IMG/VR virus record: IMGVR_UViG_3300032288_003197
Span: 1 to 64,000 of that record
Source of the DNA: a virus
Strand: one strand, 5' to 3'
Length of the DNA: 64,000 nt
This document shows, in pieces, positions 1,066 through 14,489 of this stretch (positions are counted from its first letter, which is position 1; every line of letters begins with the position of its first letter). The notes below the pieces were generated by a model that saw only the letters and a list, made by a program, of their open reading frames with translations, was not told the origin of the DNA and searched no databases. A program made the translations under genes and the position numbers.

Positions 1066-1094
1066 ATTGTACGACAACTCGTCATTGTCGTCAA
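1066..1094 (-). promoter_or_regulatory. sigma70-type promoter inside tRNA array
   Basis: TTGACG-17nt-TACAAT upstream of tRNA-Gly(TCC). Confidence 0.65.
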
Positions 1095-1100
1095 CACATT

Positions 1101-1177
1101 TGGTGGTGAAGGTCAGGATCGAACTGACGACCTCAGGGTTATGAATCCTGCGCTCTCACCGGCTGAGCTACATCACC
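1101..1177 (-). tRNA. tRNA-Met(CAT), probably elongator
   Basis: Cloverleaf, loop TTCATAA, paired 1-72. Confidence 0.9.
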
Positions 1178-1178
1178 A

Positions 1179-1253
1179 TGGGGTGTCGTATGAGAATCGA
1201 ACTCATGATAGCGGAATCACAACCCGCGGTTTTACCACTAAACTAACGTCACC
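1179..1253 (-). tRNA. tRNA-His(GTG)
   Basis: Loop TTGTGAT, G-1/C73 signature, CCA. Confidence 0.93.
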
Positions 1254-1287
1254 ATATAGAAACACACTACAACAATAGGTTTTTATA

Positions 1288-1361
1288 TGGTAGGGGTGCA
1301 GGGGAACGATCCCTGTTTTACTGGTTAAAAGCCAGTTACTTCACCTTAAAGTTTCACCCCC
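1288..1361 (-). tRNA. tRNA-Lys(TTT), atypical T-loop
   Basis: ACTGG-CTTTTAA-CCAGT anticodon arm, CCA; T-loop reads GATCGTTC instead of GTTCGAATC. Confidence 0.85.
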
Positions 1362-1389
1362 TGGGTTTATCACTCTTGTCACTGTCCAT
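1354..1389 (-). CDS. putative 11-aa micropeptide MDSDKSDKPRG
   Basis: Strong AAGGAG RBS before ATG; stop TGA lies inside the 5' end of tRNA-Lys. Confidence 0.4.
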   Translation of the reverse strand: MDSDKSDKPRG

Positions 1390-1436
1390 GGGACTCTCCT
1401 TTTAATTAAACTTTTGATGCAATCTGTAAATATTGC

Positions 1437-2234
1437 ATGTCAGATATCACAGTAATTTTTCAAAATCAACCGCCAATACATATCAAACTCTATGATACTG
1501 CTGCTGCCGCGCATTGGCGCAAACTGTTTGTTCAAAACTATCAACAAAAATTTCCACTGTTTCGGGACATGCAAAAATATACCTGGAAATATCTTGAACA
1601 TCTAGTAGATCAGGCAAACAAAACATGTGGATGGAATTTTACAACACAAATTCAAAATCTTCAAGACACAGTGGATTTGCACAAACACATTGAAGTCACG
1701 TTGGCCAACGGATATCAAAACATCCCATCTGACTGGGACCACTTGCTGGACGAGTTACATTTTGCCTTGCATACTGTCCAGCAAACAAAACTGTCTAACA
1801 TATCACGCCGTGGTAACTTTCTTCAAATTGAGTGGTTCAACGATGATTATGTTCCATTACCAGAAGATTTTGTGTTTACATCAAATCTTCAATTTGGAGA
1901 TCTAAGACTTCAAAATGCCTATGTGGGGCACATCCCGTTACAGATTTTTGAACAAAATGATTTTGCCAATGTTTTTCAAACTTGTCGATTTCATGACAGA
2001 ATCAAACCGGGACTAAACATTACAATTTTTTCAGGCAACCGTGTACTACCCAACATCGAAACCTATACTCAATGGTGGAATACTCATGCCCCAGAGTTTG
2101 TCAAATATCATGGCTGGAACAAAATTATGTACTACACTGGACATCCAATCATTGGGCAAGTTGTCAACACCGATGATCTTGCCAAGGTTGCCACATGTGC
2201 CGAAGTATTAGAACTTCAAGAAGTGATTTACTGA
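1437..2234 (+). CDS. hypothetical protein
   Basis: 265-aa ORF, AT-richer than flanks; only convincing plus-strand gene in the window. Confidence 0.8.
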   Translation: MSDITVIFQNQPPIHIKLYDTAAAAHWRKLFVQNYQQKFPLFRDMQKYTWKYLEHLVDQANKTCGWNFTTQIQNLQDTVDLHKHIEVTLANGYQNIPSDWDHLLDELHFALHTVQQTKLSNISRRGNFLQIEWFNDDYVPLPEDFVFTSNLQFGDLRLQNAYVGHIPLQIFEQNDFANVFQTCRFHDRIKPGLNITIFSGNRVLPNIETYTQWWNTHAPEFVKYHGWNKIMYYTGHPIIGQVVNTDDLAKVATCAEVLELQEVIY

Positions 2235-2244
2235 TTTAAAAATT

Positions 2245-2325
2245 TGGTACCCCAGACGGGATTTGAACCCGCATTTAAATTTCTCCTTTTGAGAGAGACG
2301 ACTTTGCCAATTTGTCTACTGGGGC
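2245..2325 (-). tRNA. tRNA-Leu(CAA)
   Basis: Loop CTCAAAA, extended variable arm, CCA. Confidence 0.9.
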
Positions 2326-2332
2326 ACAAAAA

Positions 2333-2408
<76 letters not shown>

Positions 2409-2415
2409 ATTGTAT

Positions 2416-2491
2416 TGGCTCCCCGACCTGGATTCGAACCAGGCTTCACGGATTAACAGTCCGCCGCCTTCACCTAGATTGCTCTCGGGGA
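2416..2491 (-). tRNA. tRNA-Asn(GTT)
   Basis: Loop CTGTTAA, G73, CCA. Confidence 0.93.
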
Positions 2492-2980
2492 ATTTAATTT
2501 TTTGTATCTTATATTTTTTGCTCGGTGTGTCGGTGTTTGACTATGACAGTTCGGACACAAGATACGCAAGTTTTCAATTTTATTATTAACGTTGTTTCCG
2601 TCTATGTGATCTAATTCTAATGATAATGGCTTGCCGTTGTAAACATTGCTAATTCCACATTCTTCGCAAGTATGATTGCGTTCAACTAACAATCTTCTTC
2701 GCAATGAATCATGGGCCATTTCTTCGTGTGGACGACTCCAAGATTTTGCTCTATGAATTGCAGAAGTTTTTCTTTGGGCTTCCGCTTTATCATACTTTAA
2801 CATCTTTTGAGCATTAATTTCTTTGCGCTGTGCTTCGGTAGTATCAGAATAAAAGTCCAACATTGCCTTGCGCTTTTTTTCTTTAGATTTGTCTGTAAAA
2901 GTCCTGCTGTTAGCACAACTTCGGCTGCAAAACAAACCTTGTTTTTCATGAACCATGCTGCATTTTGGACATGCTTTCAT
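2474..2980 (-). CDS. HNH homing endonuclease
   Basis: CxxC...LELDHIDGNNVNNKIENLRILCPNCH; stop overlaps tRNA-Asn 5' end. Confidence 0.92.
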   Translation of the reverse strand: MKACPKCSMVHEKQGLFCSRSCANSRTFTDKSKEKKRKAMLDFYSDTTEAQRKEINAQKMLKYDKAEAQRKTSAIHRAKSWSRPHEEMAHDSLRRRLLVERNHTCEECGISNVYNGKPLSLELDHIDGNNVNNKIENLRILCPNCHSQTPTHRAKNIRYKKLNSPRAI

Positions 2981-2983
2981 ATT

Positions 2984-3021
2984 GAACCTCCGATACTTTT
3001 ATTTATATCTTTCGGAGGTTC
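2984..3021 (-). promoter_or_regulatory. RBS-sequestering hairpin with late promoter in its loop
   Basis: GAACCTCCGA/TCGGAGGTTC 10-bp stem hides GGAGG; TATAAATA in the loop. Confidence 0.8.
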
Positions 3022-3035
3022 GACGCTAGATAACT

Positions 3036-3110
3036 TGGTGCCCCGGGGGTGAATCGAACACCCGACCTCGGATTACAAAACCGATGTTTTACCACTAGAA
3101 CTAACGGGGC
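3036..3110 (-). tRNA. tRNA-Thr(TGT)
   Basis: Loop TTTGTAA, CCA. Confidence 0.94.
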
Positions 3111-3119
3111 TAAATTTTT

Positions 3120-3209
3120 TGGCGGAGAGTTAGGGAGTCGAACCCTATCAGCGGCTCGTCACCACCGCGGGATTAGCAATCCCGTGCCTTACCATCCGGC
3201 CCACTCTCC
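3120..3209 (-). tRNA. tRNA-Ser(GCT)
   Basis: Loop TTGCTAA, long variable arm, G73. Confidence 0.95.
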
Positions 3210-3218
3210 GTCTACGCT

Positions 3219-3247
3219 ATTATATAGTCGACACTGTTGTGTGTCAA
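3219..3247 (-). promoter_or_regulatory. sigma70-type promoter inside tRNA array
   Basis: TTGACA-17nt-TATAAT, perfect consensus, upstream of tRNA-Ser. Confidence 0.75.
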
Positions 3248-3255
3248 CAAAATCT

Positions 3256-3332
3256 TGGTGCCTGTTCGTGGTCTCGAACCACGGACCCCCGCGTTATCAA
3301 CACGGTGCTCTAACCAACTGAGCTAAACAGGC
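3256..3332 (-). tRNA. tRNA-Ile(GAT)
   Basis: Loop TTGATAA, CCA. Confidence 0.95.
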
Positions 3333-3335
3333 CAC

Positions 3336-3411
3336 TGGCAGGGGATGATGGGATCGAACCACCGAATGTCTGAATCAAAATCAGATGCCTTACCACTTGG
3401 CGAATCCCCTA
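3336..3411 (-). tRNA. tRNA-Gln(TTG)
   Basis: Loop TTTTGAT, CCA. Confidence 0.93.
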
Positions 3412-3417
3412 CAAACA

Positions 3418-3492
3418 TGGCATCCCGCCAGGGATTCGAACCCCGTCCCACGGTTTTGGAGACCGTCATGCTGCCGTTGACACCAGCGAGAT
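3418..3492 (-). tRNA. tRNA-Trp(CCA)
   Basis: Loop CTCCAAA, CCA end. Confidence 0.92.
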
Positions 3493-3499
3493 ACAAATA

Positions 3500-3575
3500 T
3501 GGTGGAGGTAAACGGGATCGAACCGATGACCCCCTGCTTGCAAAGCAGGTGCTCTCCCAGCTGAGCTATACCCCC
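3500..3575 (-). tRNA. tRNA-Ala(TGC)
   Basis: G3:U70, loop TTTGCAA. Confidence 0.96.
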
Positions 3576-3584
3576 AAACTTTTA

Positions 3585-3785
3585 ACACACTCTTGAGAAT
3601 GTGTGTATTAAAGCATACTAGCCGCTCTGTTTCTTCTGTATGCCTACAGATTGTATCCATTCGTCTAATATGCTTTAATACGCTGTGATTTTTCACACCA
3701 CACAAGGTGCTCCATCCCACAGGCCGCCCATTTGCAACTGTTTAGAGTGTGTTGCAGGATCGCGTTTCCTGGTCGCACTTGGAGA
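3585..3785 (-). ncRNA. unassigned structured RNA candidate(s)
   Basis: 17-bp stem 3605-3621/3665-3681 (G-U pair only on minus strand) plus a GC-rich multi-stem unit at about 3703-3782; no credible ORF. Confidence 0.5.
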
Positions 3786-3959
3786 TCAAAGATCAAAAAT
3801 TCGAGCTTTGGATTCTCTCTGGTTTACTTTTTCACGAAATGCTCGAGCTCGTTCATACTTTTCATCAATCAGTTTGCGAAACTGTTCCTCGGTAAGGTGA
3901 TTTTCAGTAGTGAATTTGATCTCTCGCATGCGTTTTCTAAAATCAATTTTTTCCTTCAT
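3786..3959 (-). CDS. small basic hypothetical protein (MKEKIDFRKR...)
   Basis: ORF starting just after the attenuator terminator. Confidence 0.6.
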   Translation of the reverse strand: MKEKIDFRKRMREIKFTTENHLTEEQFRKLIDEKYERARAFREKVNQRESKARIFDL

Positions 3960-3971
3960 AATCTTTTGCAA

Positions 3972-4039
3972 AACAAAAAACCCAGGGTGTTTAGTCCTGG
4001 GTCCTGGGGTAAGATACAGTTGTATGTTACTTAGGACCC
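3972..4039 (-). terminator. attenuator 1: mutually exclusive terminator/antiterminator
   Basis: Terminator ACCCAGG-loop-CCTGGGT+TTTTT; antiterminator GGGTCCT(4039-4033)/AGGACCC(4005-3999) shares ACCC with the terminator. Confidence 0.8.
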
Positions 4040-4141
4040 TGAGCCTCCTGGAATGCTGTTCAAGCCTGTAAATGTGCGTGGCCAGACTGATGTCTGAGGC
4101 ATCGCAGATTTTTGTAGCACTGAACACATTGTATGTTTCAT
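4031..4141 (-). CDS. leader peptide 1 (36 aa) MKHTMCSVLQKSAMPQTSVWPRTFTGLNSIPGGSGS
   Basis: Manual translation; directly behind promoter; last codons and stop overlap the antiterminator 5' strand. Confidence 0.72.
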   Translation of the reverse strand: MKHTMCSVLQKSAMPQTSVWPRTFTGLNSIPGGSGS

Positions 4142-4151
4142 CTTAAGTCCT

Positions 4152-4180
4152 ATTGTACTTTATTTATGATTGTTTGTCAA
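4152..4180 (-). promoter_or_regulatory. composite sigma70 + late promoter for leader 1
   Basis: TTGACA-17nt-TACAAT with CATAAATA inside the spacer. Confidence 0.75.
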
Positions 4181-4209
4181 CCAAGAATTGATTCCGTGTT
4201 ACGCGGAAT

Positions 4210-4284
4210 TGGTTGCGGGGGGAGGAATCGAACCTCCGGCTTCCAGGTTATGAGCCTGGCGGTCTACCGCTGACGTACCCCGCG
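4210..4284 (-). tRNA. initiator tRNA-fMet(CAT)
   Basis: C1:A72 mismatch, CGCGGGG acceptor, loop CTCATAA. Confidence 0.9.
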
Positions 4285-4312
4285 ATATGTTATAAATCAA
4301 ACAAGTTGTTGG

Positions 4313-5146
4313 TCAGCCCGGAAACCAATCTTTTTCTTCGTCGAACTTGTAGTTGTCTGGCAGTACAACCTTGTTTGAATGATCAACCAAATCAAGCAAT
4401 TGAGGTTTGGGAACCCCAGTAATTCTAATTTGTCTTCTACGTGAAGTGCAAACCGGAACTCCATGCAAAAAGTAATCACTGGACAAATACACCGGATCGT
4501 TGGATTTCAAAACTGTTTTGTTGTCAGCACCGTCCAAACTCCACCACAGTGGAACACCGCCATCACTGAGATTTAGCACCATGATCACATGTCCTTGTTG
4601 ATATACACCATTGTTGACACCTAAATTTTTAGTAAATGATGTTCCACTATCAAATTCATATCTCAAGTCGCGATGTATGCAGGCAAACGATCCCGGCTCC
4701 ATGCTTACGCAATGTATACTTACAATTCTTTGAAACGGTAATTTTTTTAAAATAAATTCTACAATTTTTAATTGCTTGAACTCGGGTTTTAACTTGTACA
4801 ATCTATGCAAATGATGATTGCGCATGGTAGAACCGCCTATGCCAGCACGTAGTTTTACATACTCACTATCTGAGTCAACAAGGTGAAGTTCCAATAATTG
4901 AGTTATATCAAATTGAGGAATCCCATCAGAAATACCACATTCTGTTTCCACACTGATCTTATCATACAAGTCTGGATCTACCATGCCCCAACTTTGATTG
5001 AGTTGCCGGGTGTTACTCCAAACTGATTCAAGAGATCTTATTTGTCGTGCCGCTGGTAAAATACAATTATCATATTCATCGATAAAAATTGTAGGATCAA
5101 AATCAATGTTGAGTTTTGCGTAGGCAAAATTTGCAAATGGGTGCAT
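4313..5146 (-). CDS. putative 2OG-Fe(II) oxygenase-like protein
   Basis: HxD (IHRD)...H (FLHGV)...R pattern. Confidence 0.55.
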   Translation of the reverse strand: MHPFANFAYAKLNIDFDPTIFIDEYDNCILPAARQIRSLESVWSNTRQLNQSWGMVDPDLYDKISVETECGISDGIPQFDITQLLELHLVDSDSEYVKLRAGIGGSTMRNHHLHRLYKLKPEFKQLKIVEFILKKLPFQRIVSIHCVSMEPGSFACIHRDLRYEFDSGTSFTKNLGVNNGVYQQGHVIMVLNLSDGGVPLWWSLDGADNKTVLKSNDPVYLSSDYFLHGVPVCTSRRRQIRITGVPKPQLLDLVDHSNKVVLPDNYKFDEEKDWFPG

Positions 5147-5191
5147 GGGGTATTTATTGGTACAAAGTCGCATTTCAAACTATTACAACTT

Positions 5192-5411
5192 CAATTTGTT
5201 TTGGTCAAACTGGTCGTCTTCTGCTTTGCGTTTAAAGGTACACAATGCTTGTGTGTAAAGCATGGTCTTCCTTCCAGGCACATGGACTGACTGTGACTAG
5301 CAGTCCAGAACTTAATCCCCAGCGGCCCTGGATTCAGTATTGTCCTCAGCAGATAGGCCCGTCGTCATCGAGTTTTTGACACAGACAGACCAGTTTGACC
5401 AAAACAAATTG
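5192..5411 (-). ncRNA. unassigned structured RNA closed by a perfect 24-bp inverted repeat
   Basis: CAATTTGTTTTGGTCAAACTGGTC (5192-5215) / its reverse complement (5388-5411); internal hairpins such as TGGACTG/CAGTCCA. Confidence 0.6.
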
Positions 5412-5500
5412 GTAGGAGTGGTGGGAATCGAACCCACATTCGCCGCCTTATCTAGACGGTGCTTACGAGGATATAAATCTCGCCCTTAGGCCAATATTAG
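5410..5500 (-). tRNA. atypical tRNA-like RNA, apparent anticodon TAT, very long variable arm
   Basis: GGGAGTG/CACTCCT-A-CCA acceptor and canonical T-arm; weak D-stem; loop TTTATAT; about 28-nt extra region with CCGTCT/AGGCGG stem. Confidence 0.7.
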
Positions 5501-5519
5501 CAACACTCCCATTATTCTC

Positions 5520-5667
5520 ATAGTCAAGCACCGAGAGATGCCGATTTGTCAACAAAGGTGCTTCCTCTGACAAGCGAATAGCAGTTATATCAGGACCTGT
5601 TCCTCGCACAGTTAGGCCCGCATAGTGACAGCGTCCCGTCACGATACCTGTATCGATGCTTGACTAT
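5520..5667 (-). ncRNA. unassigned structured RNA
   Basis: 15-bp closing stem ATAGTCAAGCATCGA/TCGGTGCTTGACTAT plus internal hairpins GTGACG/TGTCAC and TTGTCA/TGACAA. Confidence 0.55.
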
Positions 5668-5677
5668 AAAAACAAAA

Positions 5678-5875
5678 ATGCTCTGCATCCCCCGGCGGTA
5701 ATTGTACTGCATCAAGTACCAGGAACCCCCAGCACCATCACACACAGCTTCCACCCGCTTCACGACAGGGACCGTTATCGTATTGCCAACGCTGTTTAGG
5801 CTAGAACAGTACCGCCCGTGAGTGTCATCTCACTTCTCATCGTCTGGGACCAGACTATCCAGTGACGCTGGAACG
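5678..5875 (-). ncRNA. manA-motif RNA
   Basis: Recalled motif blocks CCCAGACGATGAGAAG, GGGCGGT, GCAATACGA, GCGGGTGGAAG, AATTACCGCCG; this motif is known from phage tRNA clusters. Confidence 0.75.
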
Positions 5876-5884
5876 TTTGTTTGC

Positions 5885-6073
5885 TCACCGAACTGGCGAG
5901 CGTAATTTAAATGTTGGTGACGGTGTCAAGTTCTCTGGCGGCTTGACAACCACAGTGTTGGACTGTCGATAATCTCGAAAAATTTCCAACACCAACCATG
6001 CCCATACTGCTATAGAAGTCACAGCGATCATGCTCAAAAGAACGATGCCAAACCAATGCATAATAGTCGTCAT
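5885..6073 (-). CDS. small membrane protein
   Basis: MTTIMHWFGIVLLSMIAV... single hydrophobic helix; start trimmed to avoid tRNAs. Confidence 0.6.
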   Translation of the reverse strand: MTTIMHWFGIVLLSMIAVTSIAVWAWLVLEIFRDYRQSNTVVVKPPENLTPSPTFKLRSPVR

Positions 6074-6084
6074 GTTGTATTTAA

Positions 6085-6161
6085 TGGCGCACCGTAGGGG
6101 ACTTGAACCCCTGACCCCTTGCGTGACAGGCAAGTGCGCTGACCAACTGCGCCAACGGTGC
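6085..6161 (-). tRNA. tRNA-Asp(GTC)
   Basis: Loop CTGTCAC, G73. Confidence 0.95.
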
Positions 6162-6162
6162 A

Positions 6163-6247
6163 TGGTGGAGATGATTGGGATCGAACCAATTGTGACCGAA
6201 GTCGGCGGATTTACAGTCCGCTGCCATACCATTACGGCGGCACCTCC
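6163..6247 (-). tRNA. tRNA-Tyr(GTA)
   Basis: Loop CTGTAAA, long variable arm. Confidence 0.95.
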
Positions 6248-6326
6248 ATGATACTTGCTACGGGACGCCAAATTCTTACGGTCGTTTAAGAGTAGGCGGC
6301 CACAGCCGCACACTCTCCCTTAAAAA

Positions 6327-6402
6327 TGGTACTCGGTACGGGAATCGAACCCGTCTTACTGACGTGAAAGGCCAGTGTCCTAAACCGATAGACGAACCGA
6401 GC
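6327..6402 (-). tRNA. tRNA-Glu(TTC)
   Basis: Loop CTTTCAC, CCA. Confidence 0.94.
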
Positions 6403-6477
6403 AATTCTATATGTAAACACACAAATTGTGTGCTTGCATATAGAGTCTGCACTCAACGCAGACTCTATACGAATCTA

Positions 6478-6545
6478 ATTTTTAAAGAACGTTGTCGGTT
6501 TCCCAACACAGCCTCTAGTATAACACTCTAGGCTTTTTGTGTCTA
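6478..6545 (-). promoter_or_regulatory. sigma70 promoter followed by rrn-like boxB-boxA
   Basis: TAGACA-17nt-TATACT; then TGTTGG-GAAA-CCGACA hairpin and CGTTCTTTAAAAAT. Confidence 0.65.
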
Positions 6546-6551
6546 CCACAT

Positions 6552-6618
6552 AAAGAAAAACCCTGCTAGTTGCAGGGCCTTTGTTGATGTAGTAATTTTT
6601 ACTTACTGACAAAGACCC
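6552..6618 (-). terminator. attenuator 2: terminator/antiterminator
   Basis: Terminator CCCTGC-AACTA-GCAGGG+TTTTTCTTT; antiterminator GGGTCTTTGT(6618-6609)/ACAAAGGCCC(6584-6575) overlaps its 5' arm. Confidence 0.78.
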
Positions 6619-6680
6619 AACAGAACACCCTGCTCATAATCTGAGCCCTGTATAGGATTGAATGCGATTGTTGTCATCAT
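6603..6680 (-). CDS. leader peptide 2 (25 aa) MMTTIAFNPIQGSDYEQGVLLGLCQ
   Basis: Manual translation; ATG 7 nt after the -10 box (leaderless); last codons overlap the antiterminator 5' strand. Confidence 0.68.
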   Translation of the reverse strand: MMTTIAFNPIQGSDYEQGVLLGLCQ

Positions 6681-6686
6681 GGTGTA

Positions 6687-6715
6687 ATTGTATATGATTA
6701 TTTATACTGTGTCAA
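6687..6715 (-). promoter_or_regulatory. composite sigma70 + late promoter for leader 2
   Basis: TTGACA-17nt-TACAAT with TATAAATA (6706-6699) inside the spacer. Confidence 0.75.
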
Positions 6716-6767
6716 GCGAAAGACTTCAAATTTGGACAAATAGATCGATTGCACAGCACGATCAAGC

Positions 6768-7490
6768 TCACAGAGCCCGAACCCACTCGGTGGGTCGCAA
6801 CCATGTGCTGTAGATATGATCTGCTGTGGCTTGATGTTGTGCCAAGTGTGGTTCTATGCCGGCCACTATGGCTGCACTGTCTTGTACAGATTCGTACAGC
6901 TCTCGTGCTTGGGCCCACTTGGGGTCTTCGTCTGCTGCCCAGGCCTGTGCTTTTTCTGCGTCCATTTCGATGTGAAACTGCATGGCTAGATGTGGACCCA
7001 TGCTCCAGGCTTGGTTAGGACAAGCACTGGATCCAGCCAAGCGTGTGGCGCCCCGAGGCACCGTGAATGCGTCATAGTGCCATTGAATCACTGTGGGTGT
7101 GGGTGCAGGACCAAACCATTTTTCAACTTCGGCATGGGTTTCATATTGTATAGACTGCCAACCAATCTCGGGCCGGGGCGAAGTGCCCACAGTTGCTCCT
7201 AGTGCTCGACTCATGAGTTGTCCGCCAAGACAGTGTCCAATCACTGGAACATCCCGAAGCACAGCCTGCAAGATCAATATTTCAGCCTGACGATTACTCA
7301 GCAAGTCATCATTGGCACTCATGCCACCGCCCATGACAGCCAAGGCTGCATAGGGTTCAATGCTGGCAGGGAATGGTTGTCCTAGCCCAGCGTTGTGAAC
7401 TTCAAACTTGATCTCGTGTTGGGTCAACCATGTCACAAGGTAAGCCGCCCACTCCGGGGTTTGATGCTGTAGTATTAGTATGGGTTTCAT
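6768..7490 (-). CDS. class I glutamine amidotransferase
   Basis: GHCLGGQ nucleophile elbow and QFHIE His-Glu. Confidence 0.9.
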   Translation of the reverse strand: MKPILILQHQTPEWAAYLVTWLTQHEIKFEVHNAGLGQPFPASIEPYAALAVMGGGMSANDDLLSNRQAEILILQAVLRDVPVIGHCLGGQLMSRALGATVGTSPRPEIGWQSIQYETHAEVEKWFGPAPTPTVIQWHYDAFTVPRGATRLAGSSACPNQAWSMGPHLAMQFHIEMDAEKAQAWAADEDPKWAQARELYESVQDSAAIVAGIEPHLAQHQATADHIYSTWLRPTEWVRAL

Positions 7491-8074
7491 TACAAGGCCT
7501 GTTGGATTCTATCAAGTATGATTTCTACTACTTGATTGCTGAGTACAACTTCGTAGTGATTTAGTGGTAATTCTATGAGTTCAAAGTCTGTTCTTGATCG
7601 CATGCTTTCTATTGTGACAACACCATCATTGGATTCTTGAATCCAAGGACTGTCGCCACGAGTTGTGACAATATTGGTCCAACGTGGTGGTGCAGGTAAT
7701 TTTTTTGCGTCCAGCATGGGTCCACTCATGGTTCCGATATCTTTCATCAAGCGATTAAAGGGCAAAAAGTATCGTGCAAAGTCTGCTTGAGCACACCCAC
7801 CATACGGAGTGCTGAGTGATATGCCACCGCAGGTTCGATCTTGATAATGATTGGCCAGGTGCAAGGCATAGATACCGCCCAGGCTATGGCTGACAAAAAA
7901 CAGTCTTTCTGCATCATCCAAGGCGCCTTTCATGAGGCCAAGGTTGTGGGCAAACCCATCTGCACTGTTGTATTCAAGTGCGATGTCTGGCAATTCGGTG
8001 TGTTCTCTCACATATTCTCTAATGTGGGTGAAGCTTTCGGCAGTGGCACTGGCACCGTGTATATACACTATCAT
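7490..8074 (-). CDS. alpha/beta hydrolase
   Basis: YIHG, SHSLGG, DGVV, NH catalytic motifs. Confidence 0.88.
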   Translation of the reverse strand: MIVYIHGASATAESFTHIREYVREHTELPDIALEYNSADGFAHNLGLMKGALDDAERLFFVSHSLGGIYALHLANHYQDRTCGGISLSTPYGGCAQADFARYFLPFNRLMKDIGTMSGPMLDAKKLPAPPRWTNIVTTRGDSPWIQESNDGVVTIESMRSRTDFELIELPLNHYEVVLSNQVVEIILDRIQQAL

Positions 8075-8093
8075 CGAAATATTTAGCCAAAGG

Positions 8094-8115
8094 AAAACCC
8101 GCCGAAGCGGGCTCC
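8094..8115 (-). terminator. intrinsic terminator after tmRNA
   Basis: GCCCGC-TTCG-GCGGGT-TTT. Confidence 0.8.
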
Positions 8116-8456
8116 GAGTTTCTGTTACGAGGTATGTCTTACCCTAGGCTGCGTTTAGGCTGCCAATGCGAACTGTTCGTCGTTTGCGTTTACGTTTTTT
8201 GCTTGATTTACGGTCATCGCCTACCGTGCTGTCCACTCCGTTACTCTTGACCCAATCGATCCTGTGTCAGGCCCATCAAAAAGATTCTTCCATCTGTCCA
8301 GTGCTTCGTGATAGCTGATCCAGACACATCCTTCGCAACCTCGGCCACAACAAGTAGTTGGCTCTTGTGGTCTAGGGTAAAAATCTTTTTGGTGGACCTG
8401 GGCGGCACTGCCCCGCCGTCTTGAATCCGTTTCTCTTTGCTTCATACAGCAATAAC
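8115..8456 (-). ncRNA. ssrA: permuted two-piece tmRNA, tag ANDEQFALAA
   Basis: Acceptor piece ends GGTCCACCA (8390); intervening segment 8389-8275; coding piece starts GGGCCTGAC (8274); tag frame 8187-8155; promoter TTGACG-17-TATACT upstream. Confidence 0.92.
8221..8445 (-). CDS. ORF through tmRNA carrying a Cys-rich oxidoreductase-like domain in the intervening segment
   Basis: [29 protein letters not shown] resembles the Oxidored-like N-terminal domain (PxEP..CC..GC..CVW..Y...L..W). Confidence 0.5.
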
Positions 8457-8472
8457 TTGCAGTATACTGTTT

Positions 8473-8691
8473 TTAGATATTGTCGTCAACCAGTTCGATC
8501 ACGTAGCCAATGTATTCTTTGGCGCGCTCACCGTCGCCAGCATCAATGGCTCCTTGTGCATCATCCAAGTAACCCATCATCTGACTGCGCAGATCGGCCA
8601 TGCTGCCTTCGCGTCGGTCTGGACGAGGAGCATCCATTGCGTCTGCTTCTTTGATGATGTCAATGTATCGTTTTAAATTGCTCATGGTCAA
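8473..8691 (-). CDS. hypothetical protein, possible internal virion protein
   Basis: TATAAATA late promoter and AGGA RBS; N-terminus LKRYIDIIKE. Confidence 0.7.
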   Translation of the reverse strand: MTMSNLKRYIDIIKEADAMDAPRPDRREGSMADLRSQMMGYLDDAQGAIDAGDGERAKEYIGYVIELVDDNI

Positions 8692-8724
8692 AATCCTTTG
8701 GTGTATTTATAGATAGATCAGTTT

Positions 8725-9378
8725 TTATTTGAGTATTTGTAGATCCTGGTGCTGGGACACGCGGGTAAACTCAATGTTGGGGGGCGTATTCCTACTGATT
8801 TGTATGGCCACACGAACGGACTCGACGTTCTCTACCGCATGCAATATTGCACTGTTGATACACACCCATTTCTCTGCGGGCAAGCAAACTCGATCAATTT
8901 CTTCCAATGTGTCAAAATTCTTTGTGATGAGATTGGGATCAAAAACTGACTTCAAGTCAGGGCGCAAGAGCGGATACCCATGCTGTCTGTACCATGATGT
9001 TTCTACACGACTGCCGCCAGTGTCCAGGATATACATGATAGTGTAGTCCCTACTGATGTCCACGTGCGGGGCAAAGAACGAACTGTGTGCGTCATATACT
9101 GCTACACCACATGGCGCAGGGTCTTGATCAAAATACTGGCGTACCCATGCATCAAACTCTTCGCTGATACTGTACCTATGAGACTTTATTGTCTTGACTT
9201 CCGACCCATCTCGCAGAGTAAAATTTCGATATTCATACTCTGCATAGCCTGGCCGATCAAGCCAATTATTCACCTTGACTTCGTGATTGCCCTTGTTTGT
9301 TTCTAGACTTGCCCAGGCCGCATCCACAATTGTTTGCGGCAAGGGTGGCAAGTCTAAAAATGCATAGGTAAATGTCAC
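8725..9378 (-). CDS. putative 2OG-Fe(II) oxygenase-like protein
   Basis: APHVD...LHAVEN...RVAIQ. Confidence 0.6.
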   Translation of the reverse strand: MTFTYAFLDLPPLPQTIVDAAWASLETNKGNHEVKVNNWLDRPGYAEYEYRNFTLRDGSEVKTIKSHRYSISEEFDAWVRQYFDQDPAPCGVAVYDAHSSFFAPHVDISRDYTIMYILDTGGSRVETSWYRQHGYPLLRPDLKSVFDPNLITKNFDTLEEIDRVCLPAEKWVCINSAILHAVENVESVRVAIQISRNTPPNIEFTRVSQHQDLQILK

Positions 9379-10262
9379 TTTTTGGTTTTTTCTGCTATTT
9401 GTTCAAAGATTCGAATTTCTCTGTTGGCATACTGCGCAGATCTCTGTGGTCCATAATTCAACACAGTAAGACCCAGCAAATCTTTGAAACTGGTATTGGT
9501 GGAATCTTGAACCAGTCGTGACATTTCTGTTACAGCAGTACGATCGGTGTCTTGTCTGGCCCAGACTGCGTACCAATTGTTGGTGTAATTTCCACTGAAT
9601 CCCATTTCACTGGCAGTGGGCACATTTGGCAGCTGAGGCAGTCTCCGCTCTCCAAACACCATGACAGGACGAACTTGTCCGTTGTTGAAAGACGGCCCAA
9701 TTCCGGTGTAAGCCAAAACTCCGTATTCAGTATGACCGGGCAACACATCGTTGACCATTGGTGCCAGCCCTTTGTAAGGAATCAAGTTGAGTCGCGTGGG
9801 CCATTTTAGATCATTGAGCCATATTTCTCCTTGATTGGCAACACCCACATTAATGATGTCTTGATTTCGGATCTGTTGTCTGATCTTGGTATCGCTGCCA
9901 GCGGTGAACATCACATATGGACTTTCGCCGATCAATGACACTGGTACAAATTCTCGATAAGTGTTGGTGCCCAGCATTGCCGGACCCACCACAAATCCAG
10001 CCTCGGCAACGATAAATGTGTGATTGTCGTTGGGCCTATTCAAAACATGTGTGGTAGCAACCGCCAGTGCCGCGCCAGGCATGTATTGAACTTCAACTGG
10101 AACTGAAACTTTACCTTGAAAGTCTTTTTGCATGGCTCTTGCAAATTTATCAATAAGTCCACCAGGCGGATACGGAACAATAAGAGTAATGGACTTAGAC
10201 GGCCATGCCAGTGCAGACACTGAGATTAGCATGGCCGAGATAAAGGTCAACAGTTTTTTCAT
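9375..10262 (-). CDS. Bug/TctC tripartite tricarboxylate transporter substrate-binding protein
   Basis: Signal peptide, WPSKSITLIVPYPPGG, IPYKG, RLPQLPNVPTASEMG. Confidence 0.88.
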   Translation of the reverse strand: MKKLLTFISAMLISVSALAWPSKSITLIVPYPPGGLIDKFARAMQKDFQGKVSVPVEVQYMPGAALAVATTHVLNRPNDNHTFIVAEAGFVVGPAMLGTNTYREFVPVSLIGESPYVMFTAGSDTKIRQQIRNQDIINVGVANQGEIWLNDLKWPTRLNLIPYKGLAPMVNDVLPGHTEYGVLAYTGIGPSFNNGQVRPVMVFGERRLPQLPNVPTASEMGFSGNYTNNWYAVWARQDTDRTAVTEMSRLVQDSTNTSFKDLLGLTVLNYGPQRSAQYANREIRIFEQIAEKTKK

Positions 10263-10352
10263 ATATCCTCTCAAAAAGTAATTGTTGAACAAAAGCACTG
10301 CTAGAGTGCTTTTGTCCGGTGCTGACAACGGGGACGATTCCCGCGTTGCTGT

Positions 10353-11312
10353 TTATTGATGTTGTTGAATGCTTTCGACCAAACCAGGAGTGAATGTATC
10401 GCGGAATTGATCATACACACCGCTCAGTGCAGCCTTGGCAGCTTCGCGTTGTTCTTGTGTCCACTTCACAATGTTGGCACCTTCTTCTGCAACAAGACGC
10501 TGTTCGGCACGAGCACCGTCACGAATGGTTTCGGCACGCTCTTCGCGACCAGCCAGCACAGCAGCTTGTTTGATCACTGCTTGAACTTCGGGACTCAATG
10601 TATCCCAGAACTTGTCGCCAATGATCATTGATGTAAGGAACAAACTGTGACCAGTGTCAATCACTGACTTGGTAACTTCGTTCTGACGCAGTGGATACAC
10701 ACGTGGGTAGTTGGTTTCACCGCCTTCAGCTTCACCGTCAACCACGACCTGACGCAGGTCTTCTACTTCGGCCACAACAGGCTTCATGCCCAGTGCAGAA
10801 ATAGTTGCTTGTGCAACAGGATTACGGTTTGAACGAACTGGTGTTCCTGCAAGCTCTTCCAATGTGCTGACTCGCTTGTTGGAAATCATTTGGCGGAAGC
10901 CACCTGAGTATGTGAAACTCAAGCCACGCACATTTGACTTGTCTGTGAGCTTGGCAAGCAGTGTTTCACCAACTTTGCCCTCTAGTACACGAGTTGCGTG
11001 ATCGTGGTCTTTGAACAAGAATGGGAGATCAAATACCAAAAAGTCCTGCTCGTACTTCTCAGCAAGCCATGTGGTGTACATTTGACTCATTTCAATTTTG
11101 CCCTGTTCCATGAGGTCCAGTAGATCGTGCTTGGTGACCACAACGCCGTTGTTGTAGCGTTGGCTGTACTCGGTAAGAGTCATGATTTCCACTTCGATTT
11201 TGTGCTCGCTTTGTTGCTCGTTTACACGACGCTCAAAGTCTTCAGCAGCACGAAGGAAAAGATTCAAAGGTTCATGGGCAATGACCCAGCGAATTTTGGT
11301 AGTGTTACTCAT
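10353..11312 (-). CDS. DctP-family TRAP substrate-binding protein without signal peptide
   Basis: FDLPFLFKDHDHA, GGFRQM, KFWDTLSPEVQAVI; N-terminus not hydrophobic. Confidence 0.85.
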   Translation of the reverse strand: MSNTTKIRWVIAHEPLNLFLRAAEDFERRVNEQQSEHKIEVEIMTLTEYSQRYNNGVVVTKHDLLDLMEQGKIEMSQMYTTWLAEKYEQDFLVFDLPFLFKDHDHATRVLEGKVGETLLAKLTDKSNVRGLSFTYSGGFRQMISNKRVSTLEELAGTPVRSNRNPVAQATISALGMKPVVAEVEDLRQVVVDGEAEGGETNYPRVYPLRQNEVTKSVIDTGHSLFLTSMIIGDKFWDTLSPEVQAVIKQAAVLAGREERAETIRDGARAEQRLVAEEGANIVKWTQEQREAAKAALSGVYDQFRDTFTPGLVESIQQHQ

Positions 11313-11455
11313 TTTTATATCCAGATTAGGTAGTTTAAATGTGCTTGCGAGGTTGCTCGCTACGGTTGGCGTTCTAGGCATAACATGCTAGTAAAGGAGT
11401 CCATACTCCAGGCGTCTTTGACCCGACGTCGACCACTTGATCGGCGCTGCCATGT

Positions 11456-12355
11456 TTATTTAGTCAGAGACACGCCTTGACTCAAACGTTTCCATAGTGC
11501 CACCTGTGAATCAAACCAAATCTGTGTGGCCGTGGTGTTGAGGTTGCTGGGATCACAGTAGTCCACAGCATAGGCACGCTGCACTGCATCTGTTCGGCCG
11601 GCTTGCAGTACCAAACTTCGCAGTTCTTGGTACTGTGCTTCGGGCATGGATTTTGGCACTTGCAAACTGTGCATGTTAACCACCTCGCCCACTCCAGCAA
11701 AGCCCTGACTTTCCAAGGTGGCAATGCCACGCACTGTTTTCTTGCCTGAAATGCCCAGGGCGTTGAGGTCACCCTTGTCCAAGAATCCTTCAACTTCGCC
11801 CAAGAATGCCACGCTGAGATCAATGTTGCCCGAGATAGCATCAATACTGGCTTCGCGTGTGCCTTTGTAGGGCACCGGGGTGGCGTTGGGATAGCGTTTG
11901 ACAATTTCCATGGCCATGAGGTGTGAAGTGGCGCCAAGGCCAGAAATGCCAATGCTGATCTTTTGATTGCGGTCAATTTCACGCCAACTACGATACTTCT
12001 TGCTCACAATCAACATGGGTGCTGCACACTGAGTCATCAGCGGACGGAAGTCACTGACTCGATGACTCTCATCGGGATAAAAGTTAGGGCGCACAAAAAA
12101 AGCTGTACTCGCGGCCAGCACAGCGTTTGGTGTAGCTGCCACATGTTTGGCACCAATGGTTGCACCGGCACCGGGCTTGTTCTCCAAGATAAAGTTGTAT
12201 TTCTTTTGACCAGCGTTGAGCTCTTCTACCAAGCTGCGACTGTACTGTGCCTGTGTATCGCCCATGCCAAACGGCCAAACAATAGAAATAGTTTGTTGTG
12301 CTTGTGCAGCAAAATATGTCAGAGCCGCTGCTGCAGAAATTAGAAGTTTTTTCAT
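11456..12355 (-). CDS. Bug/TctC-family substrate-binding protein
   Basis: Signal peptide, ENKPGAGATIG, SGLGATSHL, VPYKG. Confidence 0.88.
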   Translation of the reverse strand: MKKLLISAAAALTYFAAQAQQTISIVWPFGMGDTQAQYSRSLVEELNAGQKKYNFILENKPGAGATIGAKHVAATPNAVLAASTAFFVRPNFYPDESHRVSDFRPLMTQCAAPMLIVSKKYRSWREIDRNQKISIGISGLGATSHLMAMEIVKRYPNATPVPYKGTREASIDAISGNIDLSVAFLGEVEGFLDKGDLNALGISGKKTVRGIATLESQGFAGVGEVVNMHSLQVPKSMPEAQYQELRSLVLQAGRTDAVQRAYAVDYCDPSNLNTTATQIWFDSQVALWKRLSQGVSLTK

Positions 12356-13536
12356 TTGAGATTTCCTTGTATGATGTCTGTGTTGACAAAGTCAGCAGGA
12401 CCTAGGTCGTAGAAGGTGTCCATGAACCCCACAAAGCCCACTGGCCGTCCCAACTCATAGGTGAAAAATTTGGGATCAATTTTGTCTACCATGTGTTGCA
12501 CGCCGGCTTTCCATACTTCGTAGAAGCGTGTTTCTGTGAAGTTTTTAAAGAACCACCAACCCATTTCACTGTAGAAGTTGTTGGTACTTTTCATGGTTTG
12601 CCATGTTGTGGGATCGTAGTCCTCATAGATCAGTGGGCGAGCAATTTGCTCGTAGGCATTGCGTTGTGCCGGACTGTGATTGGGCCAGCGCATCAAGAAC
12701 TGCAAGTGCTTGGTGTGTGGCAGTTGGAACCAGTTGCGGATTGTGTGAGCTTGTTTGATGATCAACTCAGGAATGTCTGGTTGCCAGTAAAAGTACTCTG
12801 TGGTCAAGTTGGTATAAGGACCAATTGTGGCCTGGCTATGGTTGGCTTGTATGTCTAAGAAGTACAGGTACCAACGCCCGTCCCGGATACAAATTTTAGG
12901 TTTGTCAATACCGTATAGTATACAAATGCTTTTGCCAGACTCTGCTAATTGTTTGTGCCCATCTAGGCCCAGTGGATCGTGTTTGAATGTGTGCTCGGGG
13001 TGCAAGTAATCTCTTGCACGTTCTACCCACGACTCGTCACCTTTGTAGTCCAGTATGTTTTGACTGAAGTCGTGCATGGTGATCTTTGTATTGGGGTGAC
13101 TAAGAGCCAGCTTTTGCAACACCGGCTTGGCTGCAAAATGCCATTCGCTCAGCGTATTCTCGGCTTTCATGTTCTTGGGATCAGGTCCAAGATTCTTGTC
13201 GCCCTGTGCAGGATAACGAAATACCACTTCGTCTATGTGAAGTCCGTTGTTGATAAAACTATAGAGTACTGTTGTACTGTCACTACCACCTGAGAACTCT
13301 AATCGAATATAATCGTATCGGTCTCGAAGCTGTTGTGCCCGCATGCGATACAGTTCACGCAGACTCAATTGTGGCTCAACTGTGGTGTCTATTCGACTGT
13401 ATACTTCTCTGTTGAAATTAAAATGAGGAAAGTGCCCGGTGGCTGTTGCTTCCAACAAAGCCTGCGGCTTGCTGTAAAATCGTTTGTCGCCTACAGTATA
13501 AAATCCCAGTCTGGGATTTTGTTCTAGTTCAATCAT
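12352..13536 (-). CDS. PP-loop (adenine nucleotide alpha-hydrolase-like) protein
   Basis: FSGGSDS motif; paralog of 48884-50035. Confidence 0.7.
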   Translation of the reverse strand: MIELEQNPRLGFYTVGDKRFYSKPQALLEATATGHFPHFNFNREVYSRIDTTVEPQLSLRELYRMRAQQLRDRYDYIRLEFSGGSDSTTVLYSFINNGLHIDEVVFRYPAQGDKNLGPDPKNMKAENTLSEWHFAAKPVLQKLALSHPNTKITMHDFSQNILDYKGDESWVERARDYLHPEHTFKHDPLGLDGHKQLAESGKSICILYGIDKPKICIRDGRWYLYFLDIQANHSQATIGPYTNLTTEYFYWQPDIPELIIKQAHTIRNWFQLPHTKHLQFLMRWPNHSPAQRNAYEQIARPLIYEDYDPTTWQTMKSTNNFYSEMGWWFFKNFTETRFYEVWKAGVQHMVDKIDPKFFTYELGRPVGFVGFMDTFYDLGPADFVNTDIIQGNLK

Positions 13537-14092
13537 TGTTGTTTTCTTCTAGTACTTTCCAGCCCAACTTCAGTAGATCCTCTCGGATCTCATCAGTCAC
13601 AACACTCTCACCGACAAAGTTTTCTTGATACCACTCATGTTTGGCACGTTCGTCTTCAGTCATTGACTCTAGATCTTCGTCGGTGGGTTTACCGCGAATC
13701 CCGGTGCAATACCAGTCGATGTAGTCGCCCTCTTCGCGCATGTCTGCAACAATGCCCCCAGCATAACGCCATGAGCACGAGTAGGTTTGACCTTTGAGCA
13801 AAGGCCATGTTTCTAGCTTCTGGAAGTCATTGTTGCACATTGCGGCATACAGGTTCTGTGCATACTCTTCACGAGCTTTGGCCTTGTCGCAGATCCATTT
13901 GGTACTGCGCAAATCGTATTCAAGATTGTTTTCTTTCCACTCGGGCTTGGCTTCACGCTCAGCTTGGTGTTGAGCAAAAATGTTATGAAACTCAATCATT
14001 TCCTCAGCATGTTCGGCAGTGGTATTGCCCTCTTCCACACGTCGAAGAAGACTATCTCGTTGAAACTTACCACGCTCAGGACTGGAATTCAT
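13529..14092 (-). CDS. conserved phage hypothetical protein
   Basis: ORF translationally coupled to neighbours; SCSWRYAGGIVADMR, YIDWYC. Confidence 0.75.
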   Translation of the reverse strand: MNSSPERGKFQRDSLLRRVEEGNTTAEHAEEMIEFHNIFAQHQAEREAKPEWKENNLEYDLRSTKWICDKAKAREEYAQNLYAAMCNNDFQKLETWPLLKGQTYSCSWRYAGGIVADMREEGDYIDWYCTGIRGKPTDEDLESMTEDERAKHEWYQENFVGESVVTDEIREDLLKLGWKVLEENNND

Positions 14093-14322
14093 TGTCTCTG
14101 TAAGTTCGCCCATGCCAACCACTGTTTGAAAGCAAGATACACAGCCTCTGCTTCTTGGTCATCTGCAGACACTCGCACACCACGCACATAAAAACCATCT
14201 CGGGTAACCCGGAGCATCTCATCACCACCGGCAATGTGCATGGCAATTGCAGCCTCCTCGTAGGGCGCATAAATTTGAATTGCGCCGTCGCTTAGTCCTG
14301 TTTCCCGCATGTTGTCTGCCAT
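14089..14322 (-). CDS. hypothetical protein
   Basis: AAGGA RBS just after tRNA-Arg. Confidence 0.65.
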   Translation of the reverse strand: MADNMRETGLSDGAIQIYAPYEEAAIAMHIAGGDEMLRVTRDGFYVRGVRVSADDQEAEAVYLAFKQWLAWANLQRQ

Positions 14323-14334
14323 GTATATATCCTT

Positions 14335-14409
14335 TGGTCCGGCCACCAGGAATCGAACCTGGATTGACTGCTTAGAAGGCAGATGTTCTATCCATTGAAC
14401 TATGGCCAG
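14335..14409 (-). tRNA. tRNA-Arg(TCT)
   Basis: Loop CTTCTAA, CCA. Confidence 0.93.
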
Positions 14410-14412
14410 AAT

Positions 14413-14489
14413 TGGTGCGCCCACTAGGACTTGAACCTAGGACCAATGGATTATGAGTCCACTGCTCTGACCAACTGAGCTATAGGCGC
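14413..14489 (-). tRNA. tRNA-Ile2(CAT) (lysidine type) or Met
   Basis: GACTCATAATC-ATTGGTC resembles bacterial ileX; own promoter TTGACG-17-TATAAT at about 14500-14529. Confidence 0.85.

Follow-up and report, generated by a model that had tools for sequence, protein, structure and literature searches.

A permuted phage tmRNA gene whose excised spacer appears to encode a small Oxidored-like protein under purifying selection

Considering that precursors of transfer-messenger RNA (tmRNA) are regarded as pure RNA genes with a waste spacer, a tmRNA gene whose spacer reads as a protein raises the question of whether one transcript can be RNA precursor and message at once. Such a gene lies in a stretch of 64,000 nucleotides (nt) of viral DNA, positions 1 to 64,000 of the IMG/VR virus record IMGVR_UViG_3300032288_003197 (72,339 bases, 21% complete according to CheckV); this whole stretch is called the window here, and positions are those of the window unless another locus is named. 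A preliminary description, made from the letters alone, had proposed a permuted two-piece phage tmRNA with a protein-coding intervening segment (IVS, or spacer), and had offered two explanations: either the precursor doubles as an mRNA, or a fragment of a gene was captured in the spacer. We found that the spacer encodes an Oxidored-like domain (PF09791) kept by purifying selection and very probably translated, and we consider it likely, chiefly from comparison with related phages, that the precursor tmRNA also serves as mRNA for this four-cysteine protein before it is processed.

The tmRNA itself was recognized by cmscan on the minus strand, at 8092-8489. The match to RF04321 (tmRNA_permuted) ran from 8451 to 8155 with 124.2 bits (gathering threshold 47, E 7.9e-24) and covered model positions 1-213 of 213, and the match to RF01850 (beta_tmRNA), the betaproteobacterial two-piece model, ran from 8489 to 8092 with 109.6 bits (gathering threshold 84) and covered positions 1-331 of 331. 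ARAGORN made no tmRNA call in the window. The alignments, the CCA at 8392-8390 and the coding start at 8274 confirmed the permuted layout, in which the spacer is preceded by an acceptor piece with T-arm, 3' acceptor strand and CCA and is followed by a coding piece with 5' acceptor strand and tag. In the acceptor stem, GGGCCUG (8274-8268) faces CAGGUCC (8400-8394), with G3 opposite U, the alanine-identity wobble, and an ACCA end; the tag ends in ALAA-stop, and its frame is conserved among relatives. The spacer is indeed a 115-nt segment (8389-8275) closed by complementary arms, AAAAGATT (8389-8382) and AATCTTTT (8286-8279), and in the predicted fold (-35.3 kcal/mol, z -1.9) a helix of about 13 bp closes it. 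The stem changed in a compensatory manner in one clade of relatives, from AAAAAGA/TCTTTTT to ATAAAGA/TCTTTAT. Sites of the form TTGAC(T/G)-17-TATAAT lie directly 5' of the tmRNA in many relatives, and RF01850 aligns the promoter region of the window. At the other end, the GC-rich hairpin at 8092-8115 is a probable terminator and 3' end of the precursor, judging from its alignment; a simple terminator scan made no call there.

The open reading frame (ORF) that had been said to cross both tRNA-like halves in frame with an ATG near the transcript start was recovered as described. Residues 1-18 and most of codon 19 come from the acceptor piece, residues 19/20-57 from the IVS, and residues 58-74 from the 5' end of the coding piece; the spacer reads as a Cys-rich segment of 35 residues within an ORF of 74 amino acids (aa). 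The suspicion that its cysteine pattern belongs to an oxidoreductase-like domain was borne out by hmmscan, which placed PF09791 on residues 24-54 (E 3.3e-12, 46.4 bits against a cut-off of 24); a PF09791 search of the window's own genome gave 46.2 bits. NCBIfam and PHROGs held no family for the 74-aa ORF, and an Atlas search returned PF09791 clusters only, at 0.86. Among 25 aligned phage and bacterial sequences 11 columns are invariant, including C32, C33, G36, C37, C40, V41 and W42. An AlphaFold2 model gave a predicted local distance difference test (pLDDT) of about 45-52 for the first and last ~20 residues and of 65-79 for the domain, with a helix at 42-57, and the passenger ends of the ORF vary with the tmRNA body among relatives. 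AUG 8445 is the only in-frame start upstream of the domain; no other ATG, GTG or TTG of this frame intervenes. ORFs of this kind are already listed by gene-calling programs as "hypothetical proteins", with no mention of the surrounding tmRNA.

Is the embedded frame maintained as a protein? Viral contigs were scanned with the peptide pattern; 47 stretches matched, and 40 loci encode a relative of the ORF. A tmRNA_permuted match stood at the same place in 37 of the 40 (20 of 20 and 17 of 20), and in 28 of these 37 the Oxidored-like motif lay inside the tmRNA, in frame with the acceptor-piece start; the other 9 had a different spacer. These loci were retrieved by their likeness to the ORF itself, so that Oxidored cargo is over-represented among them. 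Judging from its recurrence in 28 of 40 related viral loci, the arrangement is more than chance. Pooled Nei-Gojobori estimates of the ratio of non-synonymous to synonymous change (dN/dS) were made on the 32-codon core of the 18 distinct embedded versions. Codon positions 1, 2 and 3 of the core held 12, 9 and 26 variable sites. In the ORF frame the proportion of synonymous differences (pS) was 0.59, that of non-synonymous differences (pN) 0.094 and dN/dS 0.087, and no in-frame stop occurred in any of the 18 copies; the other two frames of the same DNA gave dN/dS values of 1.65 and 1.0, with 12 and 54 stops. Among the 12 distinct sequences with identical tmRNA junctions, pS was 0.56, pN 0.024 and dN/dS 0.023 (variable columns 5/5/23). 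Since the junctions of these 12 are exactly the same, their divergence took place after embedding. The window differs from one close relative (L001) by 14 synonymous and 2 non-synonymous changes, and in an embedded subclass with a 109-nt IVS (L251-L259) the 6-nt difference keeps the frame. Moreover, a complete relative (G001; 346,856 bases, terminal repeats, 100% complete) has a single PF09791 match, the embedded copy, and no second one; a free-standing paralogue therefore cannot supply the selection signal by gene conversion. From purifying selection and the sole copy in this genome we infer that the embedded domain is very probably translated. The preliminary description had staked its claim on a recognizable domain and on a frame kept among relatives, and both were found.

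Homologues outside a tmRNA indicate where the cargo came from. In 3 of the 40 loci the gene stands free with its own ATG and encodes a protein of 41-43 aa that starts MYP(R/K)PQEPTTCC. At L029 (3004-3135) a tmRNA directly follows the free-standing gene, whose stop codon extends into the beginning of the acceptor piece; at L031/L032 (genome G003, 98% complete) 65 kb separate the gene from a 265-nt tmRNA with a short IVS. Two database proteins (P0008, P0009) end in ...DIAV and a third (P0010) in ...VKTV, endings that agree with a different reading frame of the first part of the acceptor piece, which suggests that their genes abut a tmRNA as at L029. The L029-type arrangement is a second form of gene-tmRNA linkage, in which the two are probably co-transcribed. 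Where the free-standing genes have ATG, the embedded form has TTT; on this comparison, the Oxidored-like cargo no longer has an ATG of its own and continues the frame opened by the acceptor-piece AUG. Among cellular homologues the nearest, with 58-69% identity over the core, are free-standing genes for proteins of ~70-80 aa in Burkholderiales, in the genera Acidovorax, Polaromonas, Limnohabitans, Aquabacterium, Variovorax and Noviherbaspirillum. ARAGORN found no tmRNA within 1.5 kb of 53 bacterial loci, a weak negative, because the same program missed the window's own permuted tmRNA. The idea of a captured gene fragment therefore stands as history, given the free-standing homologues with an ATG, and falls as a decaying relic, given the purifying selection.

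The Oxidored-like gene is not the only tenant of this position, the spacer being a slot for small genes throughout this phage tmRNA family. In a sample blind to cargo, viral contigs were scanned for an exact 20-mer of the acceptor piece, which gave at least 120 stretches; all figures from this sample, here and below, are among the matches listed. There were 122 motif matches including the window, of which 107 could be divided into acceptor piece, spacer and coding piece, and 15 were left undivided (contig ends, incomplete copies). The divided set holds 90 distinct spacers of 24-382 nt, most of them stem-loops of 58-100 nt, and, the window apart, 6 of 106 resolved loci have an Oxidored-like spacer. 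The longest helix between spacer ends averaged 10.7 bp for a spacer's own arms and 6.5 bp for mixed arms (60 distinct 5' arms). We counted a cargo where an IVS of at least 50 nt had a Shine-Dalgarno-like motif followed by an ORF of 15 aa or more whose ATG, GTG or TTG stood no farther than 25 nt from the CCA. This held for 20 of the 85 distinct IVSs of at least 50 nt, the motif being typically AAGGA inside the 5' arm, as against 3.2 +/- 1.7 in mononucleotide shuffles (maximum 12 in 300) and 0 in the reverse complement; the one in L113 seems spurious. In ten of these cargo ORFs the stop is the TGA of a conserved ...TGAT in the 3' arm, just before the coding piece; 6 stop earlier in the spacer and 4 enter the coding piece. 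Among IVSs of at least 110 nt, 22 of 23 are open over at least 80% of their length.

Most of these cargos are hydrophobic peptides of 23-41 aa, and some are larger, up to 123 aa. The 284-nt spacer of L108 (2967-3227, minus strand) encodes an 87-aa Cys-rich protein with the CxxCxxCC of PF03692 (29.4 bits against a cut-off of 23), a putative zinc- or iron-chelating family, and on this match it is a second cargo of metal-binding type in the same slot. In the other cargos scanned, no Pfam family rose above its curated cut-off, and L108 alone had a PHROGs match, a weak one. The four largest further cargos, given in the table (L206, L214, L183 and L033), had no Pfam family above cut-off and no PHROG; that of L183 is weakly like DUF6552 (23.1 bits, below the cut-off of 27).

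How, then, would the window's spacer be read? We propose that transcription begins from the predicted promoter at 8489-8461 and that ribosomes would load at AUG 8445 on the nascent RNA, at a time when neither the 3' arm of the spacer stem nor the coding piece has been transcribed. Passing the T-arm and the CCA into the spacer, they would make the 74-aa protein, its central ~35 residues being the domain and its ends a passenger dictated by the tmRNA. After formation of the closing stem, cleavage by RNase P at G 8274 and trimming of the 3' end back to the CCA would remove the spacer and free the two tmRNA pieces; these enzymes are assumed from the maturation of two-piece tmRNAs as established in the accessible part of PMC11915505. 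Translation and processing would share the same molecules and hence exclude each other: since the ORF crosses both processing sites, each molecule should serve as either message or RNA. As between the two explanations offered at the outset, the doubling of the precursor as an mRNA is thus favoured over a fragment by the selection, the sole copy and the lack of any other start, all of them evolutionary arguments. We lean towards AUG 8445 as the start of the embedded gene, with less assurance than we have in the bifunctional precursor as such. The 5' arm of several Oxidored-type IVSs, the window's included, has AAAAGA or TAAAGA and so lacks the GG that a Shine-Dalgarno-like motif contains. In the 19 spacers that have their own ribosome-binding site and start, the frame of the acceptor AUG stops no more than 8 nt from the cargo start in 15, and its stop overlaps the cargo start (UGAUG, UAAUG, AUGA) in 7, the third frame giving 5 of 19 for comparison. 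This is suggestive of an acceptor-piece frame that is read generally across the family.

Several points weigh against the proposal. The 19 spacers just mentioned are not phylogenetically independent. AUG 8445 has no Shine-Dalgarno sequence and lies ~10 nt from the predicted transcript start, so that the message would not be truly leaderless, and a ribosome starting there must unwind the T-arm. The acceptor-piece frame is open in all 86 of 86 members without Oxidored cargo, and the AUG is kept where the cargo needs none; because the AUG is conserved regardless of cargo, its conservation says nothing about its use as a start. For the same reason the open acceptor-piece frame, which we had considered as a signature specific to Oxidored cargo, was dropped, the test being powerless. 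One locus (L022) has the domain and reads ACG at the AUG site, so that initiation would require a TTG lying 3 codons, or an ATG lying 22 codons, farther upstream. Overall confidence in the AlphaFold2 model is low (mean pLDDT 60.8), the retrieval by ORF favours Oxidored cargo as said above, and what is put forward on translation, transcript ends and processing comes from evolutionary comparison. Metatranscriptomes shift the balance in neither direction. Six runs were listed as sharing small portions of the sampled words, and the contigs of four of them (X15, X16, X19 and X20; 85% likeness) cover only 8116-8282, the conserved tag and coding piece, with many mismatches and loose ends and with the spacer uncovered. 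They probably come from many tmRNAs and carry no weight for or against a translated precursor, since contigs cannot show ends.

The domain might instead be translated from a different RNA, namely a longer mRNA that reads through from upstream genes (by re-initiation after the 72-aa ORF that ends at 8473) or from a non-canonical start within the spacer, while the tmRNA would come from a separate pool of transcripts. The upstream ORF (8473-8691) does end 28 nt before AUG 8445, several relatives (L009, L013, L021) have no clear promoter before the tmRNA and an upstream ORF that ends ~20 nt before it, the free-standing gene of L029 directly precedes a tmRNA with which co-transcription is likely, L022 lacks the AUG, and some Oxidored-type 5' arms read AAAGGA, which is Shine-Dalgarno-like. 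A strong promoter-like site nevertheless stands directly upstream in the window and in many relatives, no in-frame ATG, GTG, TTG or one-base-off variant of ATG occurs between the CCA and the first Cys codons, and on a longer transcript AUG 8445 would still be the sole in-frame start. We therefore hold this account to be unlikely, but it is the most serious of the competitors to a precursor that is itself the message.

The two remaining accounts give up one of the two functions. If the tmRNA were defunct, the locus would be no more than a gene for a small protein, its untranslated and terminal coding regions being remnants of a former tmRNA, as the extent of the ORF over both tRNA-like halves and the missing ARAGORN call would allow. 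Two full-length Rfam matches far above threshold speak against this, as do the intact G3-U wobble, ACCA end and ALAA-stop tag; short non-coding IVSs and other cargos are also found in the same tmRNA body, with a tag frame conserved throughout, and the arms of the closing stem co-vary. A dead tmRNA is accordingly very improbable. Still less credible is an untranslated relic of a captured gene, its coding signal stemming from recent capture or from gene conversion with a free-standing copy. Related phages do have free-standing homologues, and the embedded copy has lost its ATG (TTT instead); but the dN/dS of 0.023 at a pS of 0.56 among the 12 same-junction sequences shows divergence after capture, the 18 distinct embedded copies hold no in-frame stop, the 6-nt length difference keeps the frame, and the complete genome G001 has no second copy from which conversion could draw.

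The bifunctional precursor can be extended to the whole family, a joint claim that we regard as improbable when all of its parts are taken together. The spacer would then be set aside for the expression of small proteins, which could be exchanged, and three functions would fall to the precursor. The stem that marks the spacer for excision would also hold a ribosome-binding site in its 5' arm and a stop codon in its 3' arm; a leader frame from the conserved acceptor AUG would be translated in every member and be either coupled to the cargo (UGAUG/AUGA) or, as in the window, fused with it; and folding with RNase P cleavage would switch the molecule from mRNA to tmRNA. Cargos that cross the cleavage site, the Oxidored-like one among them, would leave a stop-less message, whose product would be tagged for degradation by the tmRNA from the same transcripts, as a self-limiting timer.

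Exchange of cargo between tmRNA bodies was followed in a tree of the tmRNA body without its spacer, in which the acceptor piece was joined to the opening 60 nt of the coding piece (122 columns, 93 distinct rows). The window groups with L033 and L030 (100% support in the Shimodaira-Hasegawa-like approximate likelihood ratio test, 92% identity). The cargo of L033 is a 68-aa ORF preceded by a separate ribosome-binding site, the spacer of L030 is short, and neither locus has the Oxidored-like gene. The Oxidored label changes 9 times on the best tree, at least 3 of these changes being forced by well-supported branches, and a single Oxidored clade is rejected (approximately unbiased test, p 0.028) on an alignment that is short and has many forks without support. 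L022 and L251 have near-identical tmRNA bodies and very different Oxidored-type spacers (115 vs 109 nt). Thus, the body tree and this pair show that spacer contents move between backbones, and recombination in the conserved flanks is the likely route.

Permuted tmRNAs are known from Alphaproteobacteria, a betaproteobacterial lineage, cyanobacteria and aquatic phages, and share with the window the order of the pieces, a removed spacer, the G-U alanine pair and a tag of ALAA type; the best-fitting comparison for the window is the Rfam beta-type model. Two-piece tmRNAs make up 53 of the 133 unique phage tmRNA structures from aquatic phages in the accessible part of PMC9004378. The corresponding part of the 2025 tmRNA database paper (PMC11915505) describes one spacer with a tRNA-Ala gene as a "unique feature" and a longest spacer with a repetitive element. 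In known permuted tmRNAs the spacer is treated as non-coding in these portions of the literature, whereas that of the window is a protein gene under purifying selection, and in this phage family about a quarter of the distinct spacers (among the matches listed) open with a ribosome-binding site and an ORF. No published report of protein-coding spacers in permuted tmRNA genes was found in full-text searches, which left subscription journals largely, and supplements wholly, outside. What appears to be new here is the excised spacer of a permuted tmRNA as a gene slot and, in the window, a cargo apparently fused to a start codon within the tRNA-like domain.

A likeness exists to tmRNAs with group I introns, which also have protein-coding sequence in a precursor part absent from the mature RNA, in their case LAGLIDADG homing endonucleases in self-splicing introns of the T-loop (PMC11915505, accessible part). 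In the window, by contrast, the cargo comes after the CCA and ahead of the coding piece's 5' end, the proteins of the family are small and not endonucleases, and the T-loop is uninterrupted. No group I intron family was found in the window by cmscan at the gathering threshold. Dual-function bacterial RNAs such as SgrS/SgrT, RNAIII/hld and SR1/SR1P combine an RNA role and a small-protein role in one transcript. There both functions reside in the same mature molecule, whereas in the window, as evolutionary comparison suggests, the coding part would be excised.

As for the protein, members of PF09791 (the Burkholderiales proteins of ~70-80 aa, eukaryotic OXLD1, and chain o of PDB 7zm7) share a core P-x-P-x-E-P-x-x-CC-x-x-GC-x-x-CVW followed by a helix; the bacterial ones are free-standing with an N-terminal helical extension of ~35 aa, whereas the phage versions consist of the ~35-aa core only. 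The four-cysteine core (CC-x-x-GC-x-x-C), the VW and the helix suggest a mini-domain that binds metal or takes part in redox chemistry. Among solved structures it is present in one alone, chain o of PDB 7zm7/7zmb/7zmg, where it occupies residues 235-265 of 380 (E 1.1e-6). These entries are probably the Chaetomium thermophilum complex I structures of PMC9699679. That paper describes an extra accessory subunit at the NDUFV3 site, which may or may not be chain o. A tie of the domain to the NADH-oxidising module of respiratory complex I is thus a lead only. Ten ORFs flanking four bacterial loci belong to unrelated families (ABC transporter, amidohydrolase, response regulator, RecC, phosphoglucomutase) and gave no functional clue. 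The "oxidoreductase-like domain" of a paper on ExoVII (PMC3439923) was set aside as unrelated, being Rossmann-like.

If the reading of the precursor as message holds, a selected protein gene in the spacer changes the picture of tmRNA precursors, and there would be nested genes of a kind whose translation competes with RNA maturation for the same molecule, a testable system for the translation of structured RNA precursors. The locus also bears on annotation, which calls such ORFs hypothetical and misses the enclosing tmRNA, and it ties the widespread PF09791 family, human OXLD1 included, to phage infection of probable freshwater Burkholderiales-like hosts. Exchange of cargo between tmRNA backbones amounts to a cassette-like mobility of small genes in phages.

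Table 1. Positions of the features of the tmRNA locus in the window and of the largest other cargos in their own contigs
Feature	Positions	Strand	Basis or remark
Sigma-70-like promoter (predicted): -35 TTGACG (8489-8484), 17-nt gap, -10 TATACT (8466-8461)	8461..8489	-	10/12 consensus matches
Acceptor piece: helix 2 5' strand, T-arm, acceptor 3' strand CAGGUCC, discriminator A, CCA (8392-8390)	8390..8451	-	RF04321/RF01850 alignment
AUG in internal loop of acceptor piece	8443..8445	-	Sequence; ~10 nt from predicted transcript start, without Shine-Dalgarno
74-aa ORF including stop	8221..8445	-	Starts at ATG 8445; spans both tRNA-like halves
IVS, 115 nt, absent from mature two-piece tmRNA	8275..8389	-	Rfam: insertion between CCA and coding piece
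IVS closing stem, 5' arm AAAAAGAUUUUUA	8378..8390	-	Predicted fold; AAGGA Shine-Dalgarno-like motif at same position in many relatives
Oxidored-like domain (PF09791) coding sequence; four invariant Cys (CCGRGCEGC), then VW	8284..8376	-	hmmscan and alignment
IVS closing stem, 3' arm GAAGAAUCUUUUU, pairs with 8378-8390	8278..8290	-	Predicted fold
Coding piece: acceptor 5' strand GGGCCUG, helix 2 3' strand, tag template	8116..8274	-	Rfam alignment and sequence
Tag reading frame AKNVNANDEQFALAA and stop	8155..8202	-	Rfam alignment and sequence; 15 aa
Terminal GC-rich hairpin GAGCCCGC-UUCG-GCGGGU, then UUUUCC	8092..8115	-	Aligns with RF01850 3' hairpin
Cargo of L206	10241..10609	-	123 aa
Cargo of L214	1660..1908	-	83 aa
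Cargo of L183	1630..1854	+	75 aa
Cargo of L033	3069..3272	+	68 aa

The tmRNA stands in an array of tRNA genes on one strand (22 by ARAGORN, 23 by Rfam; 320-14489, minus strand), and array and tmRNA together are a translation-related region of a jumbo phage: related contigs are jumbo phages of 300-374 kb, one of them with terminal repeats and rated 100% complete. The beta-type tmRNA and the Burkholderiales homologues of the Oxidored-like core point to a freshwater betaproteobacterial (Burkholderiales-like) host. In a phage collection from which close records may have been left out, the tmRNA had no match by blastn in distant mode, and the ORF had chance matches only by tblastn (E of at least 0.7).

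Some relatives depart from the common form. Certain short ORF-less spacers (L149, L161, L193, L101) contain T-arm-like sequences of the GGTTCGATTCC type, which may be tRNA-like elements in the spacer, reminiscent of the tRNA-Ala in the part of PMC11915505 mentioned above. Incomplete copies of the acceptor piece that break off in or near the T-loop occur at L100, L174, L111, L138, L170, L200 and L211. At L100 (2631-2650 and 4047-4315) and L174 (4350-4700, second motif ~870 nt off) the copy lies 0.9-1.4 kb from a complete tmRNA, and a complete tmRNA is also present at L211 beside the incomplete copy. These copies look like the footprint of an element inserted in the tmRNA gene with duplication of its 5' part; no group I intron family matched at these loci. 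L022 has a match to Rfam TYMV_upPK at 3903-3925 on the plus strand (42 bits, gathering threshold 38), which for a 23-nt model in a phage contig is probably chance. The tag varies as well: the frames of L008 and L038/L039 are unusually long compared with the 15 aa of the window, that of L008 having ~32 aa and ending in ...EALAV, and L015 has a different tag that ends in ...VVINGRGV.

Near the tmRNA, the gene downstream of it (7490-8074, minus strand) encodes a 194-aa protein with a borderline match to the alpha/beta-hydrolase family PF12697 (25.6 bits, cut-off 26.3). Within the tRNA array, a 98-nt Rfam tRNA match at 5413-5510 on the minus strand (41.1 bits) is absent from the ARAGORN list, and its length suggests an insertion or intron inside this tRNA.

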